Shown here piece after piece: positions 50,339 through 53,309 of a DNA stretch of 64,000 nt (position 1 is its first letter; each line of letters begins with the position of its first letter). Made by a program: the position numbers and the translations under genes. Below the pieces are notes generated by a model that ran no database searches, was not told the DNA's origin, and was given only the letters and a program-made list of their open reading frames with translations. Origin of the DNA: Escherichia coli (GTDB lineage: Bacteria; Pseudomonadota; Gammaproteobacteria; Enterobacterales; Enterobacteriaceae). The stretch is taken from NCBI RefSeq assembly GCF_041886205.1, contig NZ_CP169029.1. The stretch is one strand, 5' to 3'.

Positions 50339-50456
50339 CGGTCTCTCTCACTGGATGTTAAAGAACGGGAAAACGGCGCAGAGTATAGCAGCGAGATCGG
50401 CATCTGTCTTCGTTTTATGATAAGATGCGCGAATAATCTTTAGATGAAGAAAGACA

Positions 50457-51194
50457 ATGCTGCAAAATATTCGAATTGTGCTGGTGGAGACGTCACACAC
50501 CGGCAATATGGGTTCTGTTGCCCGTGCCATGAAAACAATGGGATTAACCAACCTGTGGCTGGTTAATCCACTGGTGAAACCTGACTCCCAGGCGATTGCC
50601 CTGTCAGCAGGGGCCAGCGATGTGATTGGTAATGCTCACATCGTCGATACGCTCGACGAAGCATTAGCTGGTTGTAGCCTGGTGGTGGGCACCAGTGCAC
50701 GCTCCCGCACGCTGCCGTGGCCGATGCTCGACCCGCGCGAATGTGGTCTGAAAAGCGTCGCTGAAGCGGCAAATACCCCGGTGGCGCTGGTTTTTGGTCG
50801 CGAGCGCGTCGGCTTGACCAATGAAGAGTTGCAGAAATGCCATTATCATGTCGCGATTGCCGCTAACCCTGAATACAGTTCGCTGAATCTGGCGATGGCG
50901 GTTCAGGTTATTGCCTATGAAGTGCGCATGGCCTGGCTTGCAACTCAGGAAAATGGTGAGCAGGTCGAGCATGAAGAGACGCCGTATCCGCTGGTCGATG
51001 ATCTGGAGCGTTTTTATGGTCATCTGGAACAAACGCTGCTGGCAACCGGTTTTATCCGTGAAAACCATCCGGGGCAGGTGATGAATAAATTGCGCCGTCT
51101 GTTTACCCGTGCGCGCCCGGAAAGCCAGGAATTGAATATCCTGCGCGGGATTCTGGCTTCTATTGAGCAGCAGAATAAAGGTAACAAGGCCTGA
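50457..51194 (+). CDS. trmJ: tRNA (cytidine/uridine32-2'-O)-methyltransferase (SpoU family)
   Basis: 245-aa ORF, SPOUT fold [24 protein letters not shown]. Confidence 0.85.
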
Positions 51195-51221
51195 GGGCTA
51201 AGCCAGATAAGTGCACGGACG

Positions 51222-51262
51222 GTCCCCTCGCCCCTTCGGGGAGAGGGTTAGGGTGAGGGGAA
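51222..51262. repeat. GC-rich intergenic repeat (box C-like) between trmJ and iscR
   Basis: tcccctcgccccttcggggagagggttagggtgagggg, an imperfect GC-rich palindrome resembling E. coli box C repeats. Confidence 0.4.
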
Positions 51263-51384
51263 GAGGCCAGCGCTAATGCGAATAATTGCCCTCAACCCGC
51301 CCATGGTCTGGAAGGACAACAGGTACAAACGCCACGATAAAAAAATGGCACTGAAGGTTAAATACCCGACTAAATCAGTCAAGT

Positions 51385-51445
51385 AAATAGTTGACCAATT
51401 TACTCGGGAATGTCAGACTTGACCCTGCTATGCAATACCCCCACT
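51385..51445 (+). promoter_or_regulatory. iscR promoter with IscR type-1 binding sites
   Basis: atagttgaccaatttactcgggaatgtcagacttgaccc immediately upstream of iscR, matching the known IscR-repressed promoter. Confidence 0.55.
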
Positions 51446-51494
51446 TTTACAATAAAAAACCCCGGGCAGGGGCGAGTTTGAGGTGAAGTAAGAC

Positions 51495-51983
51495 ATGAGA
51501 CTGACATCTAAAGGGCGCTATGCCGTGACCGCAATGCTTGACGTTGCGCTCAACTCTGAAGCGGGCCCGGTACCGTTGGCTGATATTTCCGAACGTCAGG
51601 GAATTTCCCTTTCTTATCTGGAACAACTGTTTTCCCGTCTGCGTAAAAATGGTCTGGTTTCCAGCGTACGTGGACCAGGCGGTGGTTATCTGTTAGGCAA
51701 AGATGCCAGCAGCATCGCCGTTGGCGAAGTGATTAGCGCCGTTGACGAATCTGTAGATGCCACCCGTTGTCAGGGTAAAGGCGGCTGTCAGGGCGGCGAT
51801 AAATGCCTGACCCACGCGCTGTGGCGTGATTTGAGCGACCGTCTCACCGGTTTTCTCAACAACATTACTTTAGGCGAACTGGTTAATAACCAGGAAGTGC
51901 TGGATGTGTCTGGTCGTCAGCATACTCACGACGCGCCACGCACCCGCACACAAGACGCGATCGACGTTAAGTTACGCGCTTAA
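51495..51983 (+). CDS. iscR: Fe-S cluster assembly transcriptional regulator IscR
   Basis: 162-aa Rrf2-family ORF. Confidence 0.95.
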
Positions 51984-52094
51984 TAAAAAGAATTCAGAAT
52001 CAGGCCGGGGCGTATCGCGCTCCGTAAACACGGTCGTACATCCAGCCGGTAGCCTGGTTCCTTGCATTGAGTGATGTACGGAGTTTATAGAGCA

Positions 52095-53309
52095 ATGAAA
52101 TTACCGATTTATCTCGACTACTCCGCAACCACGCCGGTGGACCCGCGTGTTGCCGAGAAAATGATGCAGTTCATGACGATGGACGGAACCTTTGGTAACC
52201 CGGCCTCTCGTTCTCACCGTTTCGGCTGGCAGGCTGAAGAAGCGGTAGATATCGCCCGTAATCAGATTGCCGATCTGGTCGGCGCTGATCCGCGTGAAAT
52301 CGTCTTTACCTCTGGTGCAACCGAATCTGACAACCTGGCGATCAAAGGTGCAGCCAACTTTTATCAGAAAAAAGGCAAGCACATCATCACCAGCAAAACC
52401 GAACACAAAGCGGTACTGGATACCTGCCGTCAGCTGGAGCGCGAAGGTTTTGAAGTCACTTACCTGGCACCGCAGCGTAACGGCATTATCGACCTGAAAG
52501 AACTTGAAGCAGCGATGCGTGACGACACCATCCTTGTTTCCATCATGCACGTAAATAACGAAATCGGCGTAGTGCAGGATATCGCGGCTATCGGCGAAAT
52601 GTGCCGTGCTCGTGGCATTATCTATCACGTGGATGCAACCCAGAGCGTGGGCAAACTGCCTATCGACCTGAGTCAGTTGAAAGTTGACCTGATGTCTTTC
52701 TCCGGCCACAAAATTTATGGCCCGAAAGGTATCGGTGCGCTGTATGTGCGTCGTAAACCACGCGTACGCATCGAAGCGCAAATGCACGGCGGCGGTCACG
52801 AGCGCGGTATGCGTTCCGGCACTCTGCCTGTTCACCAGATCGTCGGAATGGGCGAAGCCTATCGCATCGCAAAAGAAGAGATGGCGACCGAGATGGAACG
52901 TCTGCGCGGCCTGCGTAACCGTCTGTGGAACGGCATCAAAGATATCGAAGAAGTTTACCTGAACGGTGACCTGGAACACGGTGCGCCGAACATTCTCAAC
53001 GTCAGCTTCAACTACGTTGAAGGTGAGTCGCTGATTATGTCGCTGAAAGACCTTGCGGTTTCTTCAGGTTCCGCCTGTACGTCAGCAAGCCTCGAACCGT
53101 CCTACGTGCTGCGCGCGCTGGGGCTGAACGACGAGCTGGCACATAGCTCTATCCGTTTCTCTTTAGGTCGTTTTACTACTGAAGAAGAGATCGACTACAC
53201 CATCGAGTTAGTTCGTAAATCCATCGGTCGTCTGCGTGACCTTTCTCCGCTGTGGGAAATGTACAAGCAGGGCGTGGATCTGAACAGCATCGAATGGGCT
53301 CATCATTAA
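52095..53309 (+). CDS. iscS: cysteine desulfurase IscS
   Basis: Start refined to [16 protein letters not shown] (404 aa); PLP lysine [12 protein letters not shown], active-site SSGSACTS. Confidence 0.95.

Follow-up and report, generated by a model that had tools for sequence, protein, structure and literature searches.

One structured intergenic repeat of Escherichia coli has been described under four names, BoxC (Bergler 1992; Bachellier 1996/1999), PIT (Hoyne and Maher 2000/2002), TMECO (Holder et al. 2015, PMC4666352) and HPG1/HPG2 (Kaplan et al. 2016, PMC5100583), and in the thirty years since 1992 it has acquired neither a function, nor an origin, nor a partner protein. BoxC is 56 bp long (range 51-59 bp), with 32-33 copies annotated in K-12. 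Its core is captured by the pattern 5'-CCCTCNCCC N3-6 GGGNGAGGG N3 GGGNGAGGG-3' of Holder et al. 2015 (PMC4666352), in which the second loop sets the subtype: TTA marks type A, or HPG1 (given as GGGAGAGGGTTAGGGTGAGGG in PMC5100583), and CCG marks type B, or HPG2 (PMC4666352). Type A with one mismatched triplet ("A mm") is the commonest K-12 class, with 13 of 23 copies (PMC4666352). The same authors counted up to 143 motifs in Enterobacter, stated the motif to be absent from Salmonella, and found no link between it and transposons, phages or plasmids (PMC4666352).

The closest described counterpart is the system formed by REP/BIME repeats and their RAYT (TnpA-REP) protein. Like BoxC, REP is a short, structured, intergenic repeat that is present in tens to hundreds of copies, both as singlets and as inverted doublets (REPIN-like). 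The likeness extends to a single-copy nuclease gene with inverted flanking copies and to a lower copy number in the sampled lineages that lack the gene, and at the locus described here REP and BoxC are literally allelic. However, BoxC has neither sequence similarity to REP nor the GTAG tag, and whereas RAYT is a HUH/Y1 transposase, the protein encoded beside BoxC is a Vsr-like PD-(D/E)xK nuclease of the DUF559 family (PF04480), with a putative action on the repeat. The second comparison is with the IS-derived MITEs: the composites of a type-A and an inverted type-B copy seen in K-12 resemble a DUF559 unit from which the gene has been deleted, leaving two inverted ends and a short linker, and in the copy studied here inverted A and B arms are recognizable, with B decayed. 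Unlike those of MITEs, the BoxC ends are palindromic three-block structures rather than simple terminal inverted repeats, and they come with no transposase of a known family and no identified target-site duplication. Finally, the Vsr and Vsr-like (EDxHD) homing endonucleases, such as I-Bth0305I, belong to the same clan as the E. coli DUF559 protein YcjD (PMC3424549), some members of which are mobile homing nucleases; these sit in introns and inteins, whereas the DUF559 gene is free-standing between structured repeats. The sole solved YcjD homolog recovered by sequence search is an endonuclease-like protein of Neisseria gonorrhoeae (PDB 3HRL, E=1e-27).

The copy considered here lies in the window, by which we mean the whole 64,000-nucleotide stretch of E. 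coli DNA that was analysed, within the 300-nt spacer between trmJ (50457-51194, +) and iscR (51495-51983, +), with suhB upstream on the opposite strand. A sequence-only reading of this DNA had singled out a segment there as strikingly GC-rich, asymmetric in G and C between the strands, partially palindromic and reminiscent of the box C class, and all four descriptions are borne out. The GC content is 72.5% at 51220-51259, against 47-55% in the 3' end of trmJ and 33-43% further downstream, and the GC skew swings from -0.15 (51200-51239) to +0.60 (51240-51279), so that the segment is C-rich first and G-rich after. The GC-rich string quoted in that reading, TCCCCTCGCCCCTTCGGGGAGAGGGTTAGGGTGAGGGG, occupies 51223-51260. 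The palindrome consists of CCCTCGCCCC (51225-51234) paired with GGGGAGAGGG (51238-51247) in a 10-bp stem with one G.A mismatch and a TTC loop; a repeat search further returned inverted arms at 51223-51233 and 51251-51261 (91% complementary) and an inverted repeat at 51251-51262 and 51286-51297 (83% complementary). When folded as RNA or DNA, the window copy is no stabler than shuffles of the same composition (z -1.0 to -1.7; -1.35 for RNA), and its fold energy is therefore no useful evidence; in the DNA fold the C block is paired with the G-rich blocks, and only the intact K-12 A+B composite exceeds its shuffles in stability (z -4.15). A 44-aa ORF on the minus strand (51248-51382), with a TTG start, passes through the repeat, which accounts for its sequence, and it was set aside.

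As for the resemblance to box C, 51225-51259 on the plus strand is an exact regular-expression match to the TMECO pattern and differs by a single nucleotide, in loop 1, from copy no. 7 of K-12 MG1655 (PMC4666352, Table 1). With the C block CCCTCGCCC and TTA as loop 2, the window copy falls into the "A mm" class. The 64-kb window contains the 22-mer GGGAGAGGGTTAGGGTGAGGGG a single time, against an expectation of 0 from 100 shuffles; the genome-wide copy search that had been suggested as a check shows that the element as such is not single-copy: an 86-nt query around the segment found matches in 5425 of 5426 E. coli genomes, at a median of 19 and at most 35 places in each. The names trmJ, iscR, yfhQ and suhB do not occur in the accessible portions of the text and supplements of Holder et al. 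(PMC4666352), which cover 62 loci. On sequence grounds, then, the segment is a copy of BoxC, a known repeat, and an ordinary one at the trmJ-iscR locus. Its anatomy is as follows:

51192-51314, plus strand: strain-specific segment of 123 nt, which replaces the K-12 REP/BIME array and includes the trmJ stop codon TGA (51192-51194); from alignment with K-12 MG1655.
51209-51224, plus strand: type-A 5' flank AAGTGCACGGACGGTC; from 16 type-A copies and the K-12 composite alignment.
51225-51233, plus strand: C block CCCTCGCCC, the 5' arm of the hairpin; from the regular expression, with a G at position 6 that gives the G.A mismatch of the "mm" subtype.
51234-51238, plus strand: loop 1, CTTCG; read directly, its outer C and G lengthening the stem to 10 bp and leaving a TTC loop.
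51239-51247, plus strand: G block GGGAGAGGG, the 3' arm of the hairpin; read directly and from the regular expression.
51248-51250, plus strand: loop 2, TTA, the mark of type A (HPG1; PMC4666352, PMC5100583).
51251-51260, plus strand: third block GGGTGAGGG(G), the "third strand" of the published purine-motif triplex; read directly and from the regular expression.
51260-51288, plus strand: linker GAAGAGGCCAGCGCTAATGCGAATAATTG of 29 nt, homologous to the 28-29-nt linker of K-12 A+B pairs; from alignment.
51289-51302, minus strand: remnant of an inverted type-B arm, CCCTCAACCCGCCC (compare CCCTCACCCCGGCCC...), 14 nt, the B hairpin being lost; from alignment and the inverted repeat.

The core is intergenic, its third block is a G/T copy of the G block, and the surrounding conservation shows that the family has flanks of its own. 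Across 16 type-A copies some 20-25 nt are conserved upstream (positions -25 to -1, consensus AAAAA.G.GC.CGgACGGTC) and about 12 nt downstream (GAACAGGCCGGC; consensus GAAcAG.cCggC), and the window copy has both, AAGTGCACGGACGGTC on the 5' and GAAGAGGCCAGC on the 3' side. Aligned with the A+B elements at fepB-entC, ygfF-gcvP and alx-sstT of K-12, the window remains homologous over the whole 29-nt linker and 14 nt into the inverted B arm, and diverges thereafter; as the homology ends within the B arm, the window copy is a composite with a decayed B arm. Judged by these alignments, the unit exceeds the 41 nt originally reported and takes in approximately 51209-51302, that is, most of the 123-nt strain-specific segment. 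It thus has in common with the BoxC family the consensus, type A with the G.A mismatch, intergenic placement, multiple copies, the flanks and the A+B linker, and it sits, as published for TMECO loci, at a strain-variable locus. It differs from the K-12 set in that this site is absent from K-12, which has REP units there, and in its decayed partner arm; nothing essential differs. Neither the repeat search nor the K-12 alignment revealed a direct repeat around 51192-51314, nor was any target-site duplication recognized for the window copy.

The slot itself is polymorphic. In K-12 the trmJ-iscR spacer measures 451 nt (2662132-2662582), against 300 nt in the window, and is filled with palindromes that we assign to REP by its consensus, an identity supported by a median of 12 matching places per genome. 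Identity between the window and K-12 ends after ...AACAAGGCC (51191) and restarts at GACAACAGG (51315) in the pairwise alignment. Since the boundary falls at 51191, within the last codons of trmJ, the stop codon is allele-specific, the segment that varies extends up to it, and TrmJ has 245 aa in the window versus 246 aa in K-12. Outside the common ends, similarity between the window segment and the K-12 REP units is limited to scattered matches, and the segment does not qualify as REP. The complete BoxC allele, comprising the whole 300-nt spacer, is present in 1432 of 5426 E. coli genomes, with 100% identity in several complete chromosomes, and the full K-12 allele in 1513 of 5426; the shorter REP alleles span 672/673, 763 and 854 nt, against 700 nt for the BoxC allele. 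Hence, four or more length alleles of the slot exist in E. coli: one with BoxC, and REP arrays of approximately one, two and three units. The 180 nt before iscR are identical in the BoxC and K-12 REP alleles and the element lies outside them, on which ground an iscR regulatory site was rejected. This polymorphism fits the finding that TMECO loci are more rearranged than control intergenic sites across 56 E. coli strains (PMC4666352).

The relatives of the element in other bacteria point to a gene associated with the family. A scan of species-representative genomes with the TMECO pattern gave matches that, among those listed, fall in four genomes: the betaproteobacterium Mitsuaria chitosanitabida, a Methylomirabilota MAG, a Ca. 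Contendobacter MAG and an unclassified MAG. Among the matches listed, the three 9-nt blocks are letter-identical in Enterobacteriaceae and in at least four distant genomes, and the loops and flanks are lineage-specific. Mitsuaria carries at least 145 copies in 0.9 Mb of DNA; adjacent copies there are mostly in the order minus-plus, versus plus-minus in E. coli. A RAYT partner was rejected, there being no Y1/HUH transposase among the ORFs of six Mitsuaria inter-copy intervals, in which the recurrent flanked gene is instead one coding for a DUF559 protein. At two Mitsuaria loci (L061 and L062) a repeat copy ends 24 nt before the start codon of paralogous 139-aa ORFs, with further copies after the gene, and the products are DUF559 proteins (PF04480, E ~1e-39), members of a Vsr-like PD-(D/E)xK nuclease family that shares a clan with VSR and DUF2726 (PMC3424549). 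In L062 and in a third paralog, L064, a plus-strand copy precedes the gene and an inverted copy covers or adjoins the stop codon; in L062 the repeat supplies the codons for the protein tail, RGRPSPLPSPAGRERES. L061 shares the 5' copy and likewise has a repeat-like tail. Directly upstream of the 5' BoxC-like element of L064 we also observed at least 12 tandem ACGGAGC heptamers (12113-12025, minus strand).

A comparable arrangement is found at the founding BoxC of E. coli. K-12 ycjD (508-861 of our locus L138), annotated as a "DUF559 domain-containing protein", adjoins it: the protein ends in ...RRSPSP, and the DNA that codes for this end is a type-B hairpin, CCCTCTCCCTGAAAGAGCGAGGG, whose loop 1 contains the stop codon; the founding fabI BoxC, a full type A, lies 167 nt downstream of the end of ycjD. 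Most of the best 120 YcjD homologs end in PSPRPSP followed by the stop, encoded by CCCTCACCCCGGCCCTCTCCC TGA (CCC TCA CCC CGG CCC TCT CCC TGA), which is the reverse complement of the type-B G blocks; this tail occurs in Escherichia, Shigella, Kluyvera, Enterobacter, Lelliottia, Klebsiella, Leclercia, Phytobacter, Scandinavium and Franconibacter. The orthologs occupy three different neighborhoods, between sapF and fabI in E. coli, with radical-SAM/HemN-type and DUF2884 genes in Enterobacter asburiae, and between genes for a Dyp peroxidase and an ABC-transporter binding protein in Kluyvera and Klebsiella, and in all four the inverted type-B copy over the stop codon and the type-A copy downstream are retained. 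At the enterobacterial ycjD genes the copy is present only on the 3' side, a 5' copy being undetectable (k-mer 6-8). Two further features of these 3' regions are recorded here: In K-12, the type-B hairpin is flanked on both sides by a ~40-nt direct duplication of the 3' end of ycjD (GGAGACGGTGCTGGAGAATATTC...; L138 ~420-560, minus strand), an arrangement like that which an insertion of the hairpin with a long duplication would leave; in Klebsiella, two to three repeats of a ~70-nt unit that includes a BoxC-type hairpin separate the DUF559 stop codon from the type-A copy (L142 ~3364-3560).

The three Mitsuaria loci were retrieved by the motif and carry an ascertainment bias, of which 11 loci retrieved by protein are free. 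Among the latter are eight distant metagenomic homologs, four of them chosen for their tail-less proteins; retrieval by protein makes this set unbiased toward the repeat. Each of the eight has a three-block element shortly before the gene, and in seven an inverted copy also lies at or after the stop codon. Thus, for the 11 non-enteric DUF559 genes (three from Mitsuaria, eight metagenomic), the 5' element is present in 11/11 and the inverted copy at or just after the stop in 10/11, and at two of the loci (L146 and L150) the sequences of the blocks have co-varied. Altogether 15 of the 15 YcjD-type DUF559 genes inspected, from Enterobacteriaceae, a betaproteobacterium and metagenomes, have terminal BoxC-like elements, usually as an inverted pair, and often it is the inverted copy that provides the final codons together with the stop. 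As controls, the longest inverted k-mer shared by the flanks was 11-29 nt in 9/10 non-enteric DUF559 genes versus 5-9 nt (and 12 nt in one) in 28 neighbor genes (Mann-Whitney p=0.005), and a k-mer of at least 12 nt was found in 1.5% of 1000 random Mitsuaria windows. Of 150 diverse representatives, 34 by a strict and 59 by a broad definition have the signature of a repeat-encoded tail, for which 0.3 and 2.2 were expected. The physical association of DUF559 genes with BoxC is hence well supported. We found no link of DUF559 or ycjD to repeats in those parts of the literature mentioning either that are openly accessible. The window has no DUF559 homolog (best tblastn E=6.5), and the window copy flanks no such gene.

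A query with the sapF-fabI region (L138:141-928) detected ycjD in 3373 of 5426 E. coli genomes. The sapF-fabI slot holds ycjD in phylogroups A, B1 and C, ST69 and ST182, and eefRABCD in others. In an evenly spaced sample of ~60 genomes, the 37 ycjD-positive ones have 12-28 BoxC-matching places, and the 22 ycjD-negative chromosomes have 2-4 (e.g., Nissle 1917), 9 or 11-13 (mostly O157:H7), a co-variation that rests on few clades that are not phylogenetically independent. It is consistent both with the phylogroup distribution of ycjD and with the published tally. Of the strains in that tally, we take CFT073 and UTI89 to belong to phylogroup B2, and K-12, IAI1 and SE11 to A/B1. The counts are 1-2 for B2 strains such as CFT073 and UTI89, 10-11 for O157:H7 and 18-30 for A/B1 strains such as K-12, IAI1 and SE11 (Holder Table S1, PMC4666352).

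Taken as a whole, the explanation that we regard as probable is that the window element is a BoxC type-A unit with a decayed B arm, locally passive and belonging to a DUF559-linked family. As one copy of a dispersed structured repeat, it would be non-autonomous and in slow decay, residing in a repeat-prone slot that starts inside the last trmJ codons and that in other E. coli lineages holds one to three REP units. The occurrence of a nuclease gene between inverted repeats, the dispersed gene-less copies, the fewer copies in sampled genomes without the gene and the parallel with REP and RAYT together lead us to propose that BoxC elements are satellites of a DUF559 unit. The autonomous unit would comprise a YcjD-type DUF559 (Vsr-like PD-(D/E)xK) nuclease gene between inverted BoxC-like three-block copies, and both the singlets and the A+B doublets, the one in the window included, would be its gene-less derivatives. 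The nuclease may recognize or cut the structured repeat (the hairpin plus the third block) and so bring about its copying or maintenance, as RAYT does for REP; we infer both the mobility of the repeat and the action of the nuclease upon it. More tentatively, BoxC/PIT/TMECO and its variants in other phyla might be viewed as satellite repeats of the YcjD-type DUF559 gene in general, and thereby as a second, mechanistically distinct counterpart of the REP-RAYT system, a generalization that we offer as a serious possibility rather than as our expectation. Counting against the DUF559 model are the 3'-only copy at the enterobacterial ycjD genes; the retention of 11-13 BoxC-matching places in ycjD-negative, O157:H7-like genomes; the small number of clades behind the co-variation; the motif-based retrieval of the Mitsuaria loci; the published lack of a link between the motif and transposons, phages or plasmids; the failure to identify a target-site duplication or an unusually stable fold at the window copy; and the only functional study of a DUF559 protein that we found, on Caulobacter VsrA, which suggests a Vsr-like mismatch-repair role tied to a cytosine methyltransferase.

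Of the alternatives, the one that survives best, though still somewhat unlikely, dispenses with a dedicated protein: the G-rich strand, when single-stranded, would form a triplex or undergo a G-quadruplex/hairpin switch, stalling replication or repair and destabilizing the locus, and the repeat would persist because of or despite this. A stable intrastrand purine-motif triplex was demonstrated in vitro by CD and NMR for the single strand CCCTCGCCCCTTTGGGGAGAGGGTTAGGGTGAGGGG, which is one nucleotide (in loop 1) away from the window copy; a K+/Mg2+-dependent quadruplex/hairpin switch was proposed for HPG1/HPG2 (PMC5100583), and the window copy has, in its sequence, a quadruplex motif of four G-runs (GGGG AGA GGG TTA GGG TGA GGGG, 51238-51260; G3+ N1-7 x4). 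PIT elements are reported to block DNA polymerase in vitro, and the rearrangement of TMECO loci above control sites, like the polymorphism of the trmJ-iscR locus, is as this reading would have it. However, DMS footprinting did not detect the triplex in vivo, a duplex forms once the complementary strand is given, and structure alone explains neither the family-specific loops and flanks nor the presence of elements at both ends of DUF559 genes. The non-B structures and the DUF559-linked BoxC explanation are compatible and do not exclude each other.

It is also conceivable, but in our judgment unlikely, that the adjacency is irrelevant to the spread of the repeat. In such a case DUF559 would be a Vsr-like repair gene that uses a BoxC-type palindrome as its terminator or 3' hairpin, or that is a favored landing site, and the copies would multiply by recombination or through another enzyme. 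The methylation-linked endonuclease activity of Caulobacter VsrA, the restriction of the copy to the 3' side of the enterobacterial genes and the ~11-13 places kept in ycjD-negative O157 lineages, raised above against the DUF559 model, all speak for it. It does not account, though, for inverted copies on both sides of 10/11 non-enteric genes with blocks that co-vary at L146 and L150, for a 3' copy that stays fused to the stop codon across three neighborhoods, or for K-12 A+B composites that have the architecture of the flanked unit minus the gene.

The remaining alternatives concern a local role at trmJ and iscR. No T-run follows the hairpin on either strand (the stem continues into TTAGGGTGAGGGG), a terminator and promoter scan found no site at the element (51200-51320), and an Rfam scan of 50400-52100 (E<=10) returned nothing credible there, a match to the Antizyme frameshifting element at 18 bits being discarded as chance. 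Elsewhere in the scanned region, the Rfam iscRS (iscR stability) element RF01517, which is expected in this operon, was recovered between iscR and iscS (51984-52093, +, 132 bits), and a terminator-like hairpin with a T-run, GCCCCTGCCCGGGGT TTTTTATTGT, lies in the iscR 5' leader (51459-51473, minus strand), within chance expectation. One could suppose that the repeat is kept as a REP-like stabilizer of mRNA 3' ends, its hairpin guarding the trmJ message from 3' exonucleases. Stable stem-loops do follow trmJ directly in both alleles, and many type-A copies lie 10-35 nt past stop codons (tauD, adk, zntA, lldD, hrpB), but BoxC copies also occur upstream of genes and in both orientations, and the RNA fold of the window copy is within the range of its shuffles, which leaves this a doubtful proposition. 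The suggestion of the sequence-only reading that the hairpin terminates trmJ transcription and shields the iscR promoter from read-through appears very improbable: the 10-bp G+C stem does lie 30 nt past the trmJ stop codon, like the G+C-rich hairpin of an intrinsic terminator just past a stop, in a slot that other strains fill with equally structured REP units, but the U-tract of such terminators is absent, the BoxC copies lie in either orientation and 10-310 nt from adjacent genes, with no preferred position (PMC4666352), and earlier experiments, as related by Holder et al. 2015 (PMC4666352), detected neither promoter nor terminator activity in PIT elements, nor any influence on RNA polymerase. 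Most likely, the window copy serves neither trmJ nor the isc operon in any dedicated way; at most, we infer, the trmJ 3' UTR would gain from it a stable 10-bp G+C hairpin, much as it would from the REP allele.

For annotation, the segment should be labeled BoxC and not a terminator, because it is a known repeat and lies outside the conserved iscR promoter region. The trmJ-iscR locus itself is of little consequence, and its value resides in what the relatives of the element show. The BoxC repeat was already known; the link to DUF559, drawn from sequence comparisons, is the candidate new insight. If true, it would explain the origin of the BoxC family, and it could explain the approximately tenfold differences in BoxC number between E. 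coli phylogroups as well as the reported absence from Salmonella. Moreover, the association with a small nuclease gene, which in E. coli is ycjD, makes the question of the function and origin of BoxC directly testable.
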